Of a DNA stretch of 22,091 nt, positions 1 through 8,459 are shown piece by piece. How positions within the stretch are numbered: the first letter of the stretch is position 1; the number at the start of each line of letters is the position of its first letter. Under the pieces are notes generated by a model that was not told where the DNA came from, did not search any database, and worked only from the letters and a program-made list of their open reading frames with translations. The position numbers were made by a program, and so were the translations under genes. The DNA is from Candidatus Micrarchaeota archaeon (GTDB lineage: Archaea > B1Sed10-29), in contig CAZOFO010000007.1 of the NCBI GenBank assembly GCA_964579265.1, forward strand, positions 1 to 22,091, read 5' to 3'.

Positions 1-20
1 GGTATCCCCACTGGCTCCAG

Positions 21-80
21 ATACAATCCAGGAGCTCTGAGCAATTCACTTGCGATGATGTCCTATTGGTGTCAGGGGAC
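21..80 (+). ncRNA. tRNA-Trp intron 1 (37/38, 60 nt) with box C/D-type guide elements
   Basis: BHB: central helix CTCC (15-18)/GGGG (75-78), bulges AG|A (19-21) and AC|A (79-81). Box D' CTGA (37-40), GCAA/TTGC hairpin, box C'-like GCGATGA (52-58). Guide GGAGCT (31-36) is antisense to 13-18; guide CTATTGGTGTC (63-73) is antisense to 78-88. Confidence 0.85.
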
Positions 81-143: not shown

Positions 144-180
144 TTCAAATCTCCCAGACCCCATCTTATTCCCCATAATT

Positions 181-212
181 AAAAGATAGAGAAAAAAGGA
201 AATAAAAAAGTA
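181..212 (-). terminator. Probable oligo-T terminator of the minus-strand radical SAM gene
   Basis: Several T runs on the minus strand just after the stop at 223, as in archaeal intrinsic terminators. Confidence 0.4.
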
Positions 213-222
213 AATTAGTAAA

Positions 223-1515
223 TTAGTTTATATTAATAGGAATCTTCTGAAACTCTTCTCCAAAAGCAAGGTTGAGCACTTCTTTATTATCTGCAGCATA
301 TTCTAAGAACCTAGGAATAAGATCTTTAGCTACCTTACAACTATAAGAAGAAGGGGAATTTTTCCTATCCCCGAAAAACGTTCTCATCGGACAATTACCT
401 CTGCAAATATGTACTAAATCACATTGAGGACATCCTTCATAGCTTGAAGGATGGTAACTGAATAAATTCTTTCTCTGGTATTCCCGAATAGCCTCAAAGT
501 TCAAATTACTATCTTCTTCTAATTTATTTTCAATAATGAATTTATCACCTAATCCTTCTTCAATAACCTCCACACATGAACTTAGAAGACCATAAGGAGA
601 GACCACTAACCTATTCCTCATGGAACATATATAATCCGCACTAGGAACATTCAAATAAATTGTATTTATATAAGCTTTCTTATCCTTTTCAACCATATTC
701 TTAAACAACCTCATCATTTCATCGGAGAAGGAAGAAGGTTTAGGAGGACAAATATTCTGAGAACGAGATGAACCGGATACATGAACTGTTTCCAGACTAA
801 CTGATATTACTCCGTAATCATCTATTAATTTCAAAACATCCTCTGTAATATTCTCAACATTACTCTTGGTAATAGTCATCTGTACTCTAGTAAGTCCCTC
901 AGAGTAACTTTCCTCCAAAGCTTCCAGAGTCTCTTGTAGTCTAAGTTCAGAATCAAATTCCTTCGCAGGTCTGTTTATTGACTGCGAGCTTCCATCATAC
1001 GAGACCCTAAGATTCACATTTTTTGACTTCAACCACTCTAAGTGATCTTTCACCTTGGTGCCGTTAGTAACTATCCTAATATAATGATCAAGACCCATAT
1101 CCTCCACATAATTCACTACACTTTTTATCAGATCAAAATTTAGTAGAGGTTCTCCCCCACCCGTGAAAAACAAGTTTATTTTACTAGTTTCAGGATATCT
1201 TTCCATTAATTGATCTATTAGATTAAAGCAAACTTCTTTTGAAGTATCCTTTTTCTCTTCACCCCCATCAGCATAACAGTACTTACACTTAAGATTACAT
1301 CTAGTAGTAGGCACCACAGTAAGCTCCAAAGTATCTTCATCCTTTCTGAAAGCTTTTCCGCTATAATCAATTTTCTTAAATCCTTCTTCTATACTTTTTT
1401 TTATACAATTCTTATTCTTTTCATAATCATCTTTAGGGAAAAGAGCAAGAGCTCTGTCACCGGTAACAGCAACATCCTCATTTAATTTTATTACTTTAGG
1501 TTCGTAAATACCCAT
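223..1515 (-). CDS. Radical SAM/SPASM-domain protein (anSME/peptide-maturase-like), 430 aa
   Basis: CNLKCKYC (CxxxCxxC), GGGEPLLN, VTNGT, VSYDG. SPASM cysteines in YIC..SPYGLLSSC..CPQCDLVHICRGNC..YSC. About 60-aa N-terminal extension. SD GGAG at 1524-1521. Confidence 0.93.
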   Translation of the reverse strand: MGIYEPKVIKLNEDVAVTGDRALALFPKDDYEKNKNCIKKSIEEGFKKIDYSGKAFRKDEDTLELTVVPTTRCNLKCKYCYADGGEEKKDTSKEVCFNLIDQLMERYPETSKINLFFTGGGEPLLNFDLIKSVVNYVEDMGLDHYIRIVTNGTKVKDHLEWLKSKNVNLRVSYDGSSQSINRPAKEFDSELRLQETLEALEESYSEGLTRVQMTITKSNVENITEDVLKLIDDYGVISVSLETVHVSGSSRSQNICPPKPSSFSDEMMRLFKNMVEKDKKAYINTIYLNVPSADYICSMRNRLVVSPYGLLSSCVEVIEEGLGDKFIIENKLEEDSNLNFEAIREYQRKNLFSYHPSSYEGCPQCDLVHICRGNCPMRTFFGDRKNSPSSYSCKVAKDLIPRFLEYAADNKEVLNLAFGEEFQKIPININ

Positions 1516-1600
1516 AATATCTCCAAATTTTCATCTATACTAAATTATTGTTATTACAATAAGATATAAAAGGGAAAGATTTCTTCCAAAAAAATAAATC

Positions 1601-1614
1601 AAAAAGTATATAAA
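1601..1614 (+). promoter_or_regulatory. Putative BRE/TATA promoter for the small peptide and radical SAM unit
   Basis: Purine-rich AAAAAG followed by TATATAAA (1607-1614), 35 nt before the ATG at 1650. Confidence 0.5.
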
Positions 1615-1649
1615 AAGAGAAACATAAAAAAGAGAGTGGAGGGGATTAA

Positions 1650-1778
1650 ATGAAAAATTTTGTCTTACTTGCACCCTGTAAATGGAACGAAAAAAAAGAA
1701 GGTAAAGAACTAGGTCCTCAAGACCTTTGTTATAGAGATTGCCCTTGCCCAAACAGCCCTTCGGGAAAAGGTTGCTAA
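1650..1778 (+). CDS. Small Cys-rich peptide, putative RiPP precursor: MKNFVLLAPCKWNEKKEGKELGPQDLCYRDCPCPNSPSGKGC (42 aa)
   Basis: Translated by hand (absent from the ORF track). SD GGAGGGG (1638-1644) 5 nt before ATG, TAA stop, 5 Cys. Lies between two SPASM radical SAM genes, 42 nt upstream of the co-oriented one. Confidence 0.8.
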   Translation: MKNFVLLAPCKWNEKKEGKELGPQDLCYRDCPCPNSPSGKGC

Positions 1779-1820
1779 GAGTAAATCAAGATAAAAGCAG
1801 GATAAGCAACTTGAGGGAAA

Positions 1821-2858
1821 ATGAAAATGTCAGAGGACCTTATAGAGATAGGAAAGGAAATCGAACTAGAACTAATACAATGGGAACTTACAAAAGAATG
1901 TAATCTTCATTGTCCTTTCTGCTATGCGGATTCAGGACCAGACAAAATAAGCGATAACGAGTATAATTCCTCCGAAAGGAAAGAGATCTTCAAGAAATTA
2001 AAACAAATAGGATTAGAAGAACTTCAATTTCTCGGAGGAGAACCACTCTTAAAAAAAGATACGATTCTATACGCTTTAAGAGAAAACGAAGGAAACATCT
2101 CTCATTTCACAATAACTACAAACGGAACTCTCATTACTGAAGAACTAGTAGAAGAACTAAAACCATACAAAGACAAATTATCAATCCAAATAGCTCTAGA
2201 TGGAGCTAAAGAAGAAACTCATGATTCTTTAAGAGGCAAAGGAACTTATAAAAAAGTCATCAGCGGAATCAAGATACTTAACGAAAATAATATAAACTGG
2301 GGAACAACCCTTCTAGCCACCAACAAAAACTTTGATGAATTAGAAGAAATAGTGGAAAAAGTAGAGGAAAAAGGAGGAGAATACATTCAAATTCTAAAAT
2401 TAAGAAGAGGTGGAAGAGAAGAAAACTTCTACGCAAAAGCAGGATTATCAGCAGAAGAAAAGGATAAAACAAGAAATAAGATTAAAAAGCTAGTTGATAA
2501 ATACCCTGATCTCGTATTCACCGAATCTTTTGTACTCCCTTATCACAAAAACAGATTAGAAAAAGCGAAAGAAGATGAAGAATCCTTTTTAGGATGTGGA
2601 ACAGGATTAATGAGAGTTTCTATATTTCCAAATAAAATAATGAGTCCCTGCGTAGGTATAAGAGAAAATTCTCTATTAGCTGAAAAAATAGAGGATCTGG
2701 ACATAAAAGGAACTTATCAGAAGATTAAAGATAAATACCTAAAAAAGGTAAGAGAATACAAAAAACAAAGATGCCAAGAATGTGAATACAGAGAAGAATG
2801 CTTCCCAAGATCTTGCCAAATAGAAGCTGATATGGAGAAATGCCCTCAGGAAAGATAG
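1821..2858 (+). CDS. Radical SAM/SPASM-domain protein, 345 aa
   Basis: CNLHCPFC, GGEPLL, TTNGT, IALDG. SPASM GCGTG..IFPNKIMSPC..CQECEYREECFPRSC. SD-like GAGGG before the start (ATG at 1821 or 1827). Confidence 0.93.
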   Translation: MKMSEDLIEIGKEIELELIQWELTKECNLHCPFCYADSGPDKISDNEYNSSERKEIFKKLKQIGLEELQFLGGEPLLKKDTILYALRENEGNISHFTITTNGTLITEELVEELKPYKDKLSIQIALDGAKEETHDSLRGKGTYKKVISGIKILNENNINWGTTLLATNKNFDELEEIVEKVEEKGGEYIQILKLRRGGREENFYAKAGLSAEEKDKTRNKIKKLVDKYPDLVFTESFVLPYHKNRLEKAKEDEESFLGCGTGLMRVSIFPNKIMSPCVGIRENSLLAEKIEDLDIKGTYQKIKDKYLKKVREYKKQRCQECEYREECFPRSCQIEADMEKCPQER

Positions 2859-2909
2859 CCAGAAAATAACTATACTCCTTTCAAAAAGATAAATTGAGGC
2901 AATGATAAA

Positions 2910-4106
2910 ATGAAAGTTCTCATGCTCAAAAAAAGAAATAAAGATATAAGAGAGATAAAGGACCTCTGTCAAGAAAACAACTACAAAGTGATAGAAGAAA
3001 TCTCAGCTAAAGACCCAGCTAACCCATCTAAAGAAAAAATAGAAAAAATAAATCAAATATTAGAGGAAAAACCTCAATTAAAAAAAATAGTGCTGGATCA
3101 AGAAATTAAAAGACCTAGAAAAGAAGACTTGGAAAAAGCCACCGAAAAAGAAATAATGGACAGATTCGACCTCATTCTAGAAATATTCGAAGAACACATG
3201 AGTAGTTCACTTGGAAAAAAACAACTAGAATACATAAAAACAAAGAGAAAACTAAGCAAACTCAGAAGAATGGACAAAGGTGCACACGAAAGACACAGAT
3301 CACGAACAGCTACAAAAAAAATATCTAGACTCAAAGAAGATATCTCCAAAAAAAAGAAAAAATATAAAAAAGAAATAAACAAACTCATGGATCAAGGTTA
3401 CCCTTCATTCTCATTAACCGGCTACACTAACGCCGGTAAAAGCACCCTCTTCAATAATCTACTCGAAAAAAAACAAGTCAAAGAAAAATCAGAGCTATTC
3501 ACAACACTAAAAACAACAGCAAGAACAACGAAAATAAAAAACACGAAAATAATGCTAGTAGACACAGTAGGATTCTTCAAAGAAATACCGCACGACCTAA
3601 TACCTGCATTCAAAACCACATTATATGCTGCAAAAGAATGTGATTTTGTACTATCCCTAGTAGACATACAAAACAGTAAAAAGATAATAAAGGAAAGAAT
3701 AAATCTCTGCATGAACCAAGTAACTGAAAAATTCAAAGGAAAGCCAATGATACTGCTAAATAAAATAGACAAAACCAACAAAAATAAAGATGAAATAAAT
3801 CAGATAAAGAAGGAAATAAAAGAAGAATACAAAGTACCAGTATATAAAATAAGCGCTAAGGAAAAAATAGACATAAAAAAACCAATCAAAGAAGCAATGA
3901 AAAACACTAAAATCCAAGAAAAAAATATAAAAGTACCATATAAAGAACTGAAAAACAAATCAGAAACACTAAACAAACTGAAAAACTCCCCTCTAACCAC
4001 AGACATAGAAAAAAGAGATAAATACCTAAAAATAAAGATAAAAGGAACCAATAAAGCTATCGAGAAGAACAATTACCTAATAAAAAGATTAAACAAAAAG
4101 AAATGA
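2910..4106 (+). CDS. hflX: GTPase HflX
   Basis: N-terminal DRFDLILEIF, G1 GYTNAGKS, G2 LFTTL, G3 DTVGF, IPAFKTTL, G4 NKID, G5 SAK. Confidence 0.92.
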   Translation: MKVLMLKKRNKDIREIKDLCQENNYKVIEEISAKDPANPSKEKIEKINQILEEKPQLKKIVLDQEIKRPRKEDLEKATEKEIMDRFDLILEIFEEHMSSSLGKKQLEYIKTKRKLSKLRRMDKGAHERHRSRTATKKISRLKEDISKKKKKYKKEINKLMDQGYPSFSLTGYTNAGKSTLFNNLLEKKQVKEKSELFTTLKTTARTTKIKNTKIMLVDTVGFFKEIPHDLIPAFKTTLYAAKECDFVLSLVDIQNSKKIIKERINLCMNQVTEKFKGKPMILLNKIDKTNKNKDEINQIKKEIKEEYKVPVYKISAKEKIDIKKPIKEAMKNTKIQEKNIKVPYKELKNKSETLNKLKNSPLTTDIEKRDKYLKIKIKGTNKAIEKNNYLIKRLNKKK

Positions 4107-5047
4107 AGATGCACTACGAACTTGAACTTGAAAAGATGAAGAACGAGATAAAGGAATCAGATCTTGATAAGATTCTGATACAGCTACCTGAAGGGCTGAA
4201 AGACGACTCAAAGAGAATAATAGATGAACTGAGATCAGTCAAAGGAGACCTAGATATCACTCTAGACGGGAAAACTGTCCACGGAGCCTGCTGCATACCT
4301 GAGGAAGAAGAGAGAGATAAATACGATTTAATAATTCACTTCGGCCACACTCAAATGGTTCCATCGAACAATGTTATCTACGTACCTGTGAAGTCAAGAG
4401 AAGAAGTGAAAGAAGTTGCTAAAGAAGCAGCTGAAAGAGCAGAAGGAGATAAAATTGGTTTGACAACCACCACGCAGCACCTGCATAAACTAGAAGAGAT
4501 GAAGAAAGGAATAGAAGAAGCTGGAAAAGAACCTGTGACCAGGGAAGAAGACCAATATATCAAGGAAGCACAGGTCCTAGGATGCTGTTTCATCTCAGCT
4601 AATGAAATAAAGGATGAAGTAGATTCATTCATATTCATAGGATCCGGTAAGTTCCACGCTCTAGGAGTAGCCAATTCAACAGATCAGAAAGTTATACAGG
4701 GAAACCCATACAACGATGAAGTAAATGAAGTAGACCCAGGGAATTGGGAGAGAGAAAAAGAAATAAGAAAAGACAAGGCTAGAAATTCAGAGAACTTCGC
4801 GATAATAGAGACAACTTACCCAGGCCAGACAAGCAACAGAGTTACGGAAAAGACTAAGAAAAAACTAGAAAAAGACGGTAAAGATGTCTACAGGATAAAA
4901 ATGAATCAAATAACCCCAAATAGAATAAATCACCTTCCCTTCAATGCATTTGTGATAAACGCTTGCCCTAGGATTGTAAGAGATGACTGGAATAACTATG
5001 ATAAACCCGTTCTTCTTCCAGAAGAAACTGAAGAACTAATAGAGTAA
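4103..5047 (+). CDS. dph2: Diphthamide biosynthesis protein Dph2 (3-amino-3-carboxypropyl transferase)
   Basis: QLPEGLK, GACC, HFGH, QVLGC, GSGKFHA, ACPR (three Fe-S Cys regions). ATGA overlap with the hflX stop. Confidence 0.92.
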   Translation: MKMHYELELEKMKNEIKESDLDKILIQLPEGLKDDSKRIIDELRSVKGDLDITLDGKTVHGACCIPEEEERDKYDLIIHFGHTQMVPSNNVIYVPVKSREEVKEVAKEAAERAEGDKIGLTTTTQHLHKLEEMKKGIEEAGKEPVTREEDQYIKEAQVLGCCFISANEIKDEVDSFIFIGSGKFHALGVANSTDQKVIQGNPYNDEVNEVDPGNWEREKEIRKDKARNSENFAIIETTYPGQTSNRVTEKTKKKLEKDGKDVYRIKMNQITPNRINHLPFNAFVINACPRIVRDDWNNYDKPVLLPEETEELIE

Positions 5048-5050
5048 TTA

Positions 5051-5100
5051 TCTCTTTTTCCTCTAATTTTTTAGATTTTTATCCCAATTATTTTTATATA
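5051..5100 (+). promoter_or_regulatory. T-rich terminator after dph2 and putative TATA box (TTTATATA, 5093-5100) for the antiporter genes
   Basis: Oligo-T runs after the dph2 stop; TATA-like octamer about 42 nt before the ATG at 5143. Confidence 0.4.
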
Positions 5101-5142
5101 CCTTGAAGTTTTACATAACCCAGAGAAAAAGCGAGTGAAAAC

Positions 5143-6843
5143 ATGGATGGATTAACACCATTAACACTAAACTTCACTGTACTAGTGGCAGCAGCCACTA
5201 TATTCACGATAATAGCAAAAAAAACAAAGCAACCGCCTATTGTAGCATACATATTTACCGGAGTAGCGGTAGGACCAGTAATGCTAAATATAGTTTCAGA
5301 AACAGCCTCTATAGAGCTGTTTTCAGAACTAGGGCTAGGTTTTCTACTATTCTTACTTGGTCTAGAGATGAAGATAGAGAGCATAAAAAAGATATTGAAG
5401 CCTATAATAAGGATATCAATACTTCAAACAATCCTACAGACATCACTGGCATTCTTAGTCGCTTACGCATTAGGATTCGAGATGATGGAAGTCATAGTAA
5501 TAGCGATGTGCACGGTGTTCGGAGCCACACCAGTAATAGTGAAAGTCCTAACAGATCAAAACAAGATAAAAAGCCTTCCAGGAAGAATAAATGTAGGAGT
5601 TCTGATAATACAAGATATAATTCTAGTAGTGTACCTAGCACTGTATTCAGCAGGAACATTAACCAATATAACTGTAATATCGTACACTCTATTAAGAGTA
5701 CTATTAATGATGGGGCTAATAGGAGCACTAGTGATAATAACCTCAAAATATCTTTTATCTGGGCTATTCGGAGAAGTAGCTGAAAACAAACACGCTTTCT
5801 TCATACTAGGAATAACCTGGGCATTCGGATTCATCACACTAGGACACGTATTAGGGTTATCAATAGAAGTAGGAGCATTCCTAGCAGGACTAGGATTAGG
5901 GCAGATACCTTTCCACAAGGAAATACAGGAGAGAACAAGACCACTCACCAATTTCTTCCTAGTAATCTTCTTCGCATCTATAGGCCTCCAATTAACAGTA
6001 CAAAACCTATTCGTGTACTGGAAAGAAGCACTCATATCAGGAGCAGTACTAATGGTAGGTAACTTCCTAATAATGTTCTATCTGATAGACAGAGAGAAAT
6101 TCACCCCAAGAACGAGTTTCCTCGGAAGCATAAACATGACACAGGTAAGCGAGTTCTCACTAGTCGTGGGAGGAATAGCCATAACTCAAGGATTCATATC
6201 ACCCGACATATTAGGATATCTGAGTCTGATGGCTCTCGTTACAATGACCATCTCAACCTACCTAATCACCTACAACGAACAGATATACGAAAGAGTAAAA
6301 CACCTGCTTGAAAGATTTGAAGGAGAAGAGAAAAAAGACGTGGATCTAGGTACTCTAAAAGACCATGCTTTAGTAATAGGGTATAATGATACTGCAGAAA
6401 GAGTAATACCGACACTAAAGGAACACTTCGAGCAAATAGGAGTAGTAGACAAAGATCCTGAAAAAACTGAGAAGTTAGAAGAAATGGATGTAGAATACAT
6501 ATTCGGGGATTTCAAACATGAGAAAATACAAAGGGAAATGGGAGTAAGAAAAGCTGAACTAATATTAAGTTTCGCGGAAGAAGAAAATGTAAACAGACAG
6601 ATACTTAGGAACTGCAAAAAAGATTCCATAGTATTCATAGAAACAAAAGACCCTAAATTAGGAGCTGAATACTACGATATGGGAGCCGATTACATCGTGA
6701 GACAAAATATGCTAACAGCTGAAAAAATAAATGAATACTTAGAAAAGTATCTAAATAGTCTACCTCAATTCATAAACCAGATTGAAAGAGATAAAAAATC
6801 ATTAGAATGGAGAGGCAGGAAAAAAGAGGTGAAGAACAAATGA
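5143..6843 (+). CDS. Kef-type CPA2 cation/H+ antiporter with C-terminal RCK (TrkA-N) domain
   Basis: Many TM segments; FLLFLLGLE, IQD, GAFLAG, FFASIG, QVSEFS; RCK-like tail HALVIGY..VVDKDP..IFGD. Confidence 0.92.
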   Translation: MDGLTPLTLNFTVLVAAATIFTIIAKKTKQPPIVAYIFTGVAVGPVMLNIVSETASIELFSELGLGFLLFLLGLEMKIESIKKILKPIIRISILQTILQTSLAFLVAYALGFEMMEVIVIAMCTVFGATPVIVKVLTDQNKIKSLPGRINVGVLIIQDIILVVYLALYSAGTLTNITVISYTLLRVLLMMGLIGALVIITSKYLLSGLFGEVAENKHAFFILGITWAFGFITLGHVLGLSIEVGAFLAGLGLGQIPFHKEIQERTRPLTNFFLVIFFASIGLQLTVQNLFVYWKEALISGAVLMVGNFLIMFYLIDREKFTPRTSFLGSINMTQVSEFSLVVGGIAITQGFISPDILGYLSLMALVTMTISTYLITYNEQIYERVKHLLERFEGEEKKDVDLGTLKDHALVIGYNDTAERVIPTLKEHFEQIGVVDKDPEKTEKLEEMDVEYIFGDFKHEKIQREMGVRKAELILSFAEEENVNRQILRNCKKDSIVFIETKDPKLGAEYYDMGADYIVRQNMLTAEKINEYLEKYLNSLPQFINQIERDKKSLEWRGRKKEVKNK

Positions 6844-8459
6844 TCGATATCATAATAGCATTAACAATCATATTCGTAGTAGCTTCAATTACTTTATTCC
6901 TATTCAATAGGTTTAAACACCCGACAATACCTGCCTACTTAATTGCAGGGATAATAATCTCTCCTTTAGTAGCTGAAGCTGAAATACTTTCATTGGCAGA
7001 AATAGGAATTGCTTTCCTCGTATTCATATTCGGATCAGGGTTAAGATTGAAAAAAGCTGAAAAGATAATAAAAAGCACAGCAATACTTACAGCAAGCCAA
7101 GTAGTAATAATAGGATCTTTAGTATATCTTTATTCCTACATAATAGGTTTTGGAATTCTCAATTCTCTATATCTAGCAGTAGCAGCTTCTTTAAGTTCTT
7201 CTCTAGTTGGAACAGAATTGATAGGAGGTAAAAGAATAAAATTAGCCTACAAAAGACTCTGCAACTCCATAAACCTAACACAAGACCTAATAGCAATAAT
7301 GATATTCATAATACTAGCTTCCTATCCATTAACAAGACAAGGAATAATATCGAACGTGCAGATAGGAGGACTCATAATACTACTTGGATTCATACTGAGA
7401 AAAGTAGCACCTTACCTCTTGGAAACCATCAGAGGATCCCAAGAAACAGCAATGTTAGTAGCTCTCAGCACCTTACTGATATTCACCTCAGTAGCACAGT
7501 ACTATGGATTATCAATAGTGATAGGAGCATTTGCAGCAGGGATAACACTATCAAAACCACCCTACGACCAAGAGATAATGGAAACATTCGAATCCTTGAA
7601 AGATTTCTTCTCCGCTATATTCTTTGTATCACTGGGAGCACTGGTAATAATACCAACCTTTGGAATAATTATAACATCAATAGCTCTAATATTTGTCATA
7701 GTAATAGTAAAACCATTATTCACGGTTCTAATAATGGAAAGTCAAGGATACAGCAAAGGAACATCACTTATGACAGCTTTAAATCTAGATCAAATGAGCG
7801 AATTCGCATTAATACTCGCAATACACGCCCAAATGGCTGGACAGATAAGACCAACAGTATTCCAATCCATAATACTTGCAGCAGTCGTAAGCATGATAGC
7901 CAGCTCCTACACCAGCCGCCACGTCTGGGACATCTACGACAAAATAAAGGACAGATGGATCATAAATCTACCAGGAACAGAGTTCGTGGAGTCGGAAATA
8001 CCTGAAGATATATCGGATCACTTTATAATAGGAGGATACCACGTACAAGGAAAAAACATAGCCCATTTCTTAGAAGAACAGAATAAAGAAGTTATAATAG
8101 TAGAAAATGACCCTGAGAGAATACTTGAGGCAAAGGAAAACGACATGAGCTACATCCATGGAGACCTGAGAATTCAAGAGACATGGGAAGAAGCCAGATA
8201 CAAAGACGCAGAGATGATAATCTCTACAGCACCAGTAAAAGAAGTCAACGACACCATAGTAGACCTTGAAACCGAAGCATACAAAATAATCAGAACAAAA
8301 TACATAAAAGAAGCAAAAGAATACATAGATGAGACACTATACATAATAGTGCCAAGATACTTATCTACAGAGAGACTCATAGAACACCTCAAAGGATGTC
8401 TTGGAAGCGAAGGATACAGAAAAAGACTTAGAAAGATGAGTAAAGAGGAACTAATGTAA
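6840..8459 (+). CDS. Second Kef-type CPA2 antiporter with RCK domain (start revised from 6807 to 6840)
   Basis: TQD, GAFAAG, FFVSLG, QMSEFA; RCK HFIIGGY..IVENDP..IHGD. SD GAGGTGA (6826-6832) and ATGA overlap support the 6840 start. Confidence 0.9.
   Translation: MIDIIIALTIIFVVASITLFLFNRFKHPTIPAYLIAGIIISPLVAEAEILSLAEIGIAFLVFIFGSGLRLKKAEKIIKSTAILTASQVVIIGSLVYLYSYIIGFGILNSLYLAVAASLSSSLVGTELIGGKRIKLAYKRLCNSINLTQDLIAIMIFIILASYPLTRQGIISNVQIGGLIILLGFILRKVAPYLLETIRGSQETAMLVALSTLLIFTSVAQYYGLSIVIGAFAAGITLSKPPYDQEIMETFESLKDFFSAIFFVSLGALVIIPTFGIIITSIALIFVIVIVKPLFTVLIMESQGYSKGTSLMTALNLDQMSEFALILAIHAQMAGQIRPTVFQSIILAAVVSMIASSYTSRHVWDIYDKIKDRWIINLPGTEFVESEIPEDISDHFIIGGYHVQGKNIAHFLEEQNKEVIIVENDPERILEAKENDMSYIHGDLRIQETWEEARYKDAEMIISTAPVKEVNDTIVDLETEAYKIIRTKYIKEAKEYIDETLYIIVPRYLSTERLIEHLKGCLGSEGYRKRLRKMSKEELM

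Follow-up and report, generated by a model that had tools for sequence, protein, structure and literature searches.

What does a short, cysteine-rich open reading frame (ORF) do between two divergently transcribed genes for radical S-adenosylmethionine (SAM) enzymes, in the genome of a tiny archaeon? The question is raised by a stretch of 22,091 nucleotides (nt), hereafter the window, which corresponds to positions 1–22,091 of the forward strand of contig CAZOFO010000007.1 (assembly GCA_964579265.1) of Candidatus Micrarchaeota archaeon B1Sed10-29, a soda-lake DPANN archaeon with a genome of 761 kb, 36% G+C, assembled in 41 contigs and 91% complete. A 430-residue radical SAM enzyme with a seven-cysteine SPASM-type motif, enzyme 1, is encoded at 223–1515 on the minus strand, and another one, enzyme 2, of 345 residues (343 if its start is at 1827), at 1821–2858 on the plus strand, both being identified from the Pfam Radical_SAM profile, alignments and AlphaFold2 (AF2) models. 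The gap between them, 1516–1820, is 305 nt long and holds, at 1650–1778 on the plus strand, an ORF of 42 codons, exactly where a first-pass annotation of this DNA had put it. That annotation saw in the three genes a new archaeal system making a peptide synthesized ribosomally and then post-translationally modified (RiPP). We find that the ORF is probably a real gene and that its two neighbours resemble peptide-modifying radical SAM enzymes. Reading the island in which they lie as a RiPP-like cassette is plausible, if unproven, and we hold to it tentatively.

Consider the ORF itself, known from its ORF call and its ribosome-binding statistics. It begins with an ATG and its product, MKNFVLLAPCKWNEKKEGKELGPQDLCYRDCPCPNSPSGKGC, has five cysteines among 42 residues, at positions 10, 27, 31, 33 and 42, with a C-x3-C-x-C cluster and a cysteine at the very end; the list first drawn up was right for C27, C31, C33 and C42 but left out Cys10. 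Upstream, in an AT-rich divergent spacer (1516–1649, G+C 0.224), the sequence GGAGGGGAT at 1638–1646 makes a seven-base match to a Shine–Dalgarno (SD) sequence, and 7 nt separate its GAGG core from the ATG, a distance that falls inside the peak of SD spacing in the host genome (6–9 nt). Such signals are used in this organism: of 602 long ORFs, 18.9% have a GAGG in the 20 nt before their start, whereas the motif occurs in 4.2% of random 20-mers, and near-identical ribosome-binding sites (RBS) precede real small host genes, among them those of histones and ribosomal proteins, one histone gene reading GGAGGTGGATTAAA-ATG. Of 307 small intergenic ORFs, 42 have an SD-like site, and most of these 42, judged by eye, look like real proteins, some looking spurious. 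The SD sequence initially proposed for the ORF is borne out; both its type and its spacing are those of real small genes of the host. The G+C content is 0.395 across the ORF as against 0.224 across the spacer, and an independent assembly record also annotates this ORF as a gene (P0241, in a big protein collection). A TATA box of its own had also been ascribed to it. The perfect motif, TTTATATA, is indeed present at 1607–1614, but it carries no weight, because TATA-like matches are not enriched (80 observed for 120 expected). Downstream, 42 nt without a T-run lead to enzyme 2, which shares the reading frame of the ORF; a read-through fusion of the two, or the recent split of a fused gene, is excluded by four intervening stop codons (TAA, TAA, TAA and TGA; 1650–1829). 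Two further small cysteine-rich ORFs with a good RBS exist in the host, neither adjoining a radical SAM gene: one (G000:C2:9790-9891, plus strand) codes for a lysine-rich peptide of 33 residues ending in ...KDCDDKDCKDCRNPLC, the other (G000:C1:100004-100207, minus strand) for a protein of 67 residues with CPCTYPGCPRKGKCCEC.

Are the two neighbours of the kind that acts on peptides? Both are recognized by the Radical_SAM profile PF04055 (E = 5.4e-17 for enzyme 1 and 9.2e-29 for enzyme 2), and both align over their full length with NCBIfam peptide maturases, including PapB, the SCIFF maturase, MftC and DynA. Both resemble radical SAM enzymes of the peptide-modifying type, coming closest among solved structures to CteB, anSME and SkfB. 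Neither reaches the cut-off of any curated NCBIfam family, and a Pfam search finds no PqqD (PF05402) match in either. In enzyme 1 the CX3CX2C motif is C73/C77/C80, invariant in an alignment with seven relatives (38–45% identity, full length). The C-terminal seven-cysteine motif consists of C297, C314, C362-x2-C365-x5-C371-x3-C375 and C393, all invariant in the eight sequences; enzyme 1 is without a penultimate cysteine common to its seven relatives. Its AF2 model (predicted local distance difference test, pLDDT, 77.8) has a SPASM region of low confidence, 41–72 over residues 291–390, and predicts an N-terminal domain at residues 7–44 made of three strands (7–27) and a helix (28–44), which is conserved among the relatives and falls short of a complete winged helix. 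By fold, the model comes closest to CteB, with a template modelling (TM) score of ~0.68, and to anSME (0.62), and CteB is also the best solved match for the family by sequence profile (E = 3.8e-21). The family was found in only 2 of 31 genomes of the phylum and 2 of 401 archaeal genomes, namely the host and a relative, G013. Genome contigs scanned with enzyme 1 yielded nothing closer than remote bacterial radical SAM genes (25–39% identity, partial coverage), and a scan of viral contigs with the family alignment gave nothing above 26% over most of the length.

Elsewhere this family stands beside other genes. Along its whole length, enzyme 1 shares 44–46% identity with its counterparts in G013 and in locus L036, and its seven relatives (P0122–P0128, among which P0123 equals the G013 enzyme in length and identity) are overall at 38–46%. 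The G013 enzyme is directly preceded by a gene for a 45-residue peptide ending in GAAHPGCCKQ and directly followed by one for a TlyA-like methyltransferase. A gene for a small cysteine-containing peptide lies directly upstream in both of the two closest relatives with readable upstream DNA, G013 and L036, which argues that the family acts with small peptides. The motif of these GCC-peptides was found beside family members in five distinct loci (G013, L036, L037, L038 and L040), a small sample, as the metagenome scan with the family alignment covered 3 of the 64 parts of the collection, and in all five, peptide and enzyme are encoded together in one short gene cluster. The peptide genes are placed at L033 7405–7542 (minus strand), L036 1–87, L037 ~4600–4750, L038 449–616 and L040 4617–4769 (all plus), and their products share the motif G-A-A-H/E-x-G-C-C-K/R-Q/K and a hydrophobic strand with a tryptophan and GK or GS. 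A TlyA-family gene adjoins the enzyme in six loci: in L037, L038, L039, L040 and L042 it reaches the TIGR00478 cut-off of 185.8 bits, and in G013 it scores 166.6 bits, under that cut-off, its two best matches being TlyA models. In the host, by contrast with these clusters, a six-frame motif search of all 41 contigs found no GCC-type peptide, both flanks of enzyme 1 being assembled, and a query with the TlyA-like protein of G013 had no match in this 91% complete genome. A full-text search found, among the papers listed, none linking TlyA to radical SAM peptide maturases. Some minor features of this group may be recorded here. The GCC-peptides of L037 and L040 extend beyond the CC pair with a further cysteine-containing tail. 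At L043 247–2117 a distant relative of enzyme 1 (~25% identity, 488 residues) is followed by a protein of 129 residues with 16 cysteines, a different pair of radical SAM enzyme and cysteine-rich protein. Finally, at a contig end of the related genome, L034 (G013:C8) 4768–8029 on the minus strand, three radical SAM/SPASM genes stand in tandem (466, 317 and 339 residues, 15–18 cysteines each), with no precursor within 450 nt upstream.

Enzyme 2 is much more isolated. A single ortholog was identified, P0002, 43% identical and encoded on a contig of 1,452 bp, the next relatives being at 29%; none was found in 40 related genomes, and scans of metagenomes and of viral contigs with enzyme 2 gave no match. 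Its CX3CX2C motif is C25/C29/C32 (P0001 numbering) and its SPASM- or twitch-type cysteines are C257, C275 and C316-x2-C319-x5-C325-x4-C330, with a last spacer one residue longer. Across 20 homologs no change occurs at C25, C29, C32, C257, C275, C316 or C325, and hardly any at C319 and C330; the seventh SPASM-type cysteine is missing from P0002. The AF2 model (pLDDT 87.1) is most similar to SkfB (TM score 0.69, root mean square deviation 3.4, 305 columns), SuiB (0.67) and anSME (0.64), with CteB also among the best, and by sequence SkfB is again the best solved match (7.6e-17), CteB coming second. The highest NCBIfam score is that of WgkB, 102.9 bits for a cut-off of 650.

To which known system, then, might the locus be compared? 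The general layout is reminiscent of SCIFF/CteB (ScfB; TIGR03973/TIGR03974; PDB 5WGG, 5WHY), where a precursor of ~45 residues with a cysteine-rich C-terminal half lies beside a radical SAM/SPASM enzyme. Unlike that system, this locus has two divergent enzymes, the second of them without an N-terminal peptide-binding domain, in a DPANN host; the 42-residue peptide matches no NCBIfam model, and enzyme 1 obtains 70.4 bits on the SCIFF maturase model, whose cut-off is 425. PapB, which with PapA belongs to the ranthipeptides (freyrasin; NF047865), provides the best NCBIfam match of enzyme 1 (92.8 bits) and matches enzyme 2 in full length (98.5 bits), both enzymes remaining far below the cut-off of 340. 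Substrates of Cys-to-Asp thioether formation have cysteines near Asp or Asn, and the cysteines of our peptide are likewise near Asp and Asn, but a repeated C-x3-D motif is not present. As for the sactipeptide system SkfB/SkfA (PDB 6EFN), no solved structure matches enzyme 2 better than SkfB, in sequence or in fold; the identity is 24%, and the match spans residues 114–291 of the 412 of SkfB, so that enzyme 2 is without a counterpart of its N-terminal part, and on the SkfB model TIGR04403 it scores 78.5 bits for a cut-off of 300. With the GCC-peptide/TlyA clusters, which come from ultrasmall archaea and bacteria, the locus shares an orthologous enzyme with a conserved N-terminal domain, whereas enzyme 1 is here accompanied by another radical SAM enzyme and by an HflX-like GTPase. 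If functional, the cassette works like SCIFF/CteB, PapA/PapB or SkfA/SkfB, without being a member of any of their curated families. New in this case are the orphan peptide, the almost orphan second enzyme, a GCC-family enzyme accompanied by HflX instead of TlyA, and the mobile-looking island that carries them. A literature search on DPANN, radical SAM and RiPP returned no description of such a cassette in titles and the opening lines of abstracts. An archaeal precedent is at hand: in Methanococcus voltae, according to the abstract, the SPASM enzyme CrpC puts thioether (ranthionine) cross-links on CrpA, the cysteine-rich product of the neighbouring gene (PMC13692751). In contrast to the 42-residue product here, CrpA is presented in that abstract as a protein, not a short peptide (PMC13692751).

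Taken together, the arrangement suggests the following course of events. The cysteine-rich peptide would be translated from its strong RBS, its gene being most likely co-transcribed with that of enzyme 2, given the short gap between them and the lack of a T-run there. Enzyme 2 would then abstract a hydrogen atom from the peptide and cross-link its C-terminal, cysteine-rich part, the likeliest chemistry being the formation of cysteine thioethers as in ranthi- and sactipeptides. Enzyme 1, transcribed in the opposite direction and stemming from a family that appears to mature a different, GCC-ended peptide elsewhere, may have been recruited to the new peptide or else left without its usual partner. 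What the analysis establishes is the ORF with its RBS, the folds and cysteine motifs of the enzymes, the limits of the island and the family to which enzyme 1 belongs; translation and co-transcription of the ORF, the role of the peptide as a substrate and the chemistry as a whole are inferred. That two maturases act on one and the same peptide, with the thioether or cyclophane cross-links put forward at the outset, is conjecture.

Several observations weigh against the RiPP-like reading and must be set beside what precedes. The size of the ORF is by itself uninformative, as there are 307 ATG-initiated ORFs of 30–70 codons outside long ORFs in the 761 kb, and its codon-usage score is 0.07, rank 66 of these 307, for a median of 0.36 in chunks of genes. 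Contigs from the same samples show no variant inside the island on which selection on the ORF could be gauged. No homolog of the peptide was detected in 5.8 billion clustered proteins (word-indexed search), in 1.84 billion representatives (full HMMER pass) or in six-frame searches of 31 genomes of the phylum, and no counterpart of the ORF stood beside those relatives of enzyme 1 whose flanks were read. To be sure, missing hits do not show a missing family, because searches with a 42-residue query are blind to relatives as distant as those of the enzymes themselves (~43%). Weak matches in the phylum genomes (best E 0.008) are due to chance; one of them, beside a radical SAM gene (G028:C69), is antisense within an ORF of 333 residues in a G+C-rich genome and is noise, and the look-alikes of the peptide in the Atlas, all unnamed, have scores of at most 0.83, which is chance level. 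No Pfam family (E up to 0.01) and no NCBIfam family (E up to 0.1) matches the peptide either, in keeping with the early remark that it belongs to no known precursor family. The peptide and the GCC-peptides look alike by eye, with a hydrophobic stretch, a tryptophan and, a few residues later, GK, but the idea of a diverged GCC-peptide has to be rejected on sequence: on a hidden Markov model (HMM) made from the five GCC-peptides, the ORF scores 0.2 bits and comes at about rank 218 among 2,569 small host ORFs, and its pairwise local alignments with them are no better than those of shuffles (p 0.51–0.97). The closest relatives of enzyme 1 (44–46%) keep company with another, conserved peptide, usually together with a TlyA gene, and the pairing of enzyme 1 with enzyme 2 occurs in no other locus readable here. 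As for the enzymes, the term SPASM-type used at first pass fits their cysteine motifs and their fold, but the Pfam SPASM profile PF13186, present in many homologs of both, matches neither even at E up to 10, and enzyme 2 begins directly with its radical SAM core, without an N-terminal peptide-binding (RRE) domain. Nor is there a protease, an exporter or an obvious immunity gene in the island.

How far, then, do these facts lead to other explanations? The ORF may be an untranslated chance frame within a bidirectional promoter or a 5'-leader, the enzymes acting on other substrates; enzyme 1 could act, for example, on a GCC-type peptide, either lost or hidden in the unassembled 9% of the genome. 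We think this unlikely, while taking it seriously: the abundance of intergenic ORFs of that size, some SD-bearing ones among them looking spurious, the middling codon score, a peptide without relatives in all searches and the distinct conserved partner of the enzyme 1 family are all what a chance frame would lead one to expect. It accounts poorly for a seven-base SD match placed at the preferred distance, like the sites of real small genes, and for a G+C content that goes up by 17 points exactly over the ORF. The variant with a lost GCC-peptide meets a further obstacle, since all five GCC loci keep the peptide in the cluster of the enzyme, and none is present in the assembled flanks of enzyme 1 in the host. 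Should the ORF be a real gene, its product might still be no substrate at all, but a metal- or Fe–S-binding helper, a redox partner or a regulator. Five cysteines in 42 residues, with the C-x3-C-x-C cluster and the terminal one, would suit such a role, and the host does encode other cysteine-rich ORFs with an RBS, away from radical SAM genes. Yet the peptide has none of the CxxC pairs typical of zinc ribbons and rubredoxins and belongs to no known family, and its gene lies directly upstream of one for a SPASM-type enzyme, where precursors classically stand, which makes this explanation improbable.

That the enzymes would be involved in cofactor synthesis, in the manner of AhbC, AhbD, NirJ or PqqE, the ORF being irrelevant, is very improbable. 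Enzyme 2 shares with AhbC, AhbD and NirJ the radical SAM plus SPASM architecture, and its scores on AhbD (100.4 bits), NirJ2 (99.4) and NirJ1 (95.8) are comparable to those on peptide maturases, AhbD being even the best match of P0002 (113.5 bits). However, these values are far below the 500–650-bit cut-offs (500 for AhbD as for NirJ2), at least five-fold for the scores of enzyme 2, and the match to AhbD involves the radical SAM core only (18–223). In a FastTree phylogeny with the 120 best database relatives, a quick method applied to long branches, enzyme 2 and P0002 form a clade with support 100, outside the clade that contains all seven heme-named (Ahb) proteins. A grouping with the AhbC/AhbD family, which would have spoken against a peptide substrate, is therefore not what the tree displays; the nearest rows by tree path after P0002 are three maturase-type proteins fused to PqqD. 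Moreover, the island has no other gene of a heme pathway, and the family of enzyme 1 accompanies small peptides. There is, finally, the thought that the G+C-rich segment 1650–1800 does not code for protein but forms a structured small RNA or leader element. A locally raised G+C content in an AT-rich spacer and a short hairpin at 1712–1726 could evoke it, but Rfam gives no match to the segment 1630–1830, not even at E up to 10, nor is there a tRNA match, and it folds less well than shuffled sequences (z +1.44, a fold at least as good being reached by 188 of 200 shuffles), so that a structured RNA was rejected and this explanation is most improbable.

What would follow from the RiPP-like reading? 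If the peptide is modified, a radical-SAM peptide cassette would exist in a DPANN archaeon. Archaea of this sort, with genomes of ~0.8 Mb, are thought to depend on a host, and the location of the cassette in a strain-variable island would speak for a function in conflict or host contact. It would also mean that partners can be switched in a maturase family which otherwise goes with TlyA and a conserved GCC-peptide. Should the ORF be no substrate, all that is left is two orphan radical SAM genes on an island. The presence of TlyA elsewhere and of HflX here hints at a link of the enzyme 1 family with the ribosome. Pushed to its end, this line of thought would have the family make a ribosome-directed modified peptide, with TlyA, an rRNA methyltransferase, or HflX, a GTPase of ribosome rescue, in charge of self-protection or of coupling to the ribosome, and the island would be a module-swapped version, in which a new cysteine-rich peptide and a second radical SAM enzyme replace the GCC-peptide, and HflX replaces TlyA, moving about at a tRNA-Trp hotspot. 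We regard this scenario as a long shot.

The cassette lies in a strain-specific island, positions 166–4102, which comprises enzyme 1, the 42-codon ORF, enzyme 2 and the HflX-like gene and begins 2–4 nt behind a tRNA-Trp gene. This delineation comes from comparing contigs and genomes: the island is absent from a genome of the same genus (G003), where the dph2 ortholog starts ~35 nt after the tRNA, and contigs of a soda-lake metagenome (run X7) depart from the window past 165 and 167 and ahead of 4103, where they carry other sequence. Coverage in the same run is 52 on the tRNA and ~5–8 inside the island, the flanks being deeper than the island, and the G+C content of the latter is 0.324, compared with 0.373 in the rest of the contig. 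No integrase was found, nor was the tRNA end seen repeated at the right border. The last gene of the island, at 2910–4106 on the plus strand, codes for the HflX-like GTPase (Pfam GTP-bdg_N and MMR_HSR1), which scores 168.5 bits on NCBIfam TIGR03156, below the cut-off of 216.75; it is the sole copy in the host genome, and no counterpart of it turned up in five genomes from its family (62–82% complete). Beyond it, outside the island, comes a conserved right flank with a dph2-type diphthamide synthesis gene at 4103–5047 on the plus strand (Pfam Diphthamide_syn, 2.8e-64). The HflX-like gene and dph2 share 4 nt (ATGA, 4103–4106), the stop codon of the one overlapping the start of the other, despite the former being part of a variable island and the latter of a conserved flank.

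The left edge is marked by the 3' part of the tRNA-Trp(CCA) gene, at 1–163 on the plus strand, with two introns, its 5' end being located on contig C8. The segment 1–165 is G+C-rich and well folded (z = -2.5), and its DNA is 89% conserved in G003 and 71–83% in other relatives. Two inserts interrupt the tRNA, which ends at 163: one of 60 nt (21–80), at the canonical 37/38 intron site, contains the AUGAUG and CUGA motifs, and another of 48 nt (96–143) is in the T-arm. ARAGORN and Rfam miss the gene of the window in its unmodified form; once the copy of G003 is freed of its inserts of 60 nt (canonical 37/38) and 35 nt (T-arm, where the window has 48 nt), ARAGORN recognizes tRNA-Trp(cca). In its intron mode, the same program proposes another possible tRNA-Trp on contig C2 (39057–39159). 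The contig of the window, C7, has its first 55 nt (window 1–55) identical to G000:C8:1-55, and the two contigs therefore adjoin. Going outward on C8 from the start of the window, one meets a gene for a secreted-looking protein of 475 residues (196–1623), a tRNA-Arg(CCT) gene (1708–1780) and a gene for a TrmB-like regulator (1993–2754). The 475-residue gene is missing between the two tRNAs in G003 and, as a consequence, it represents a second strain-specific insertion at the same spot.

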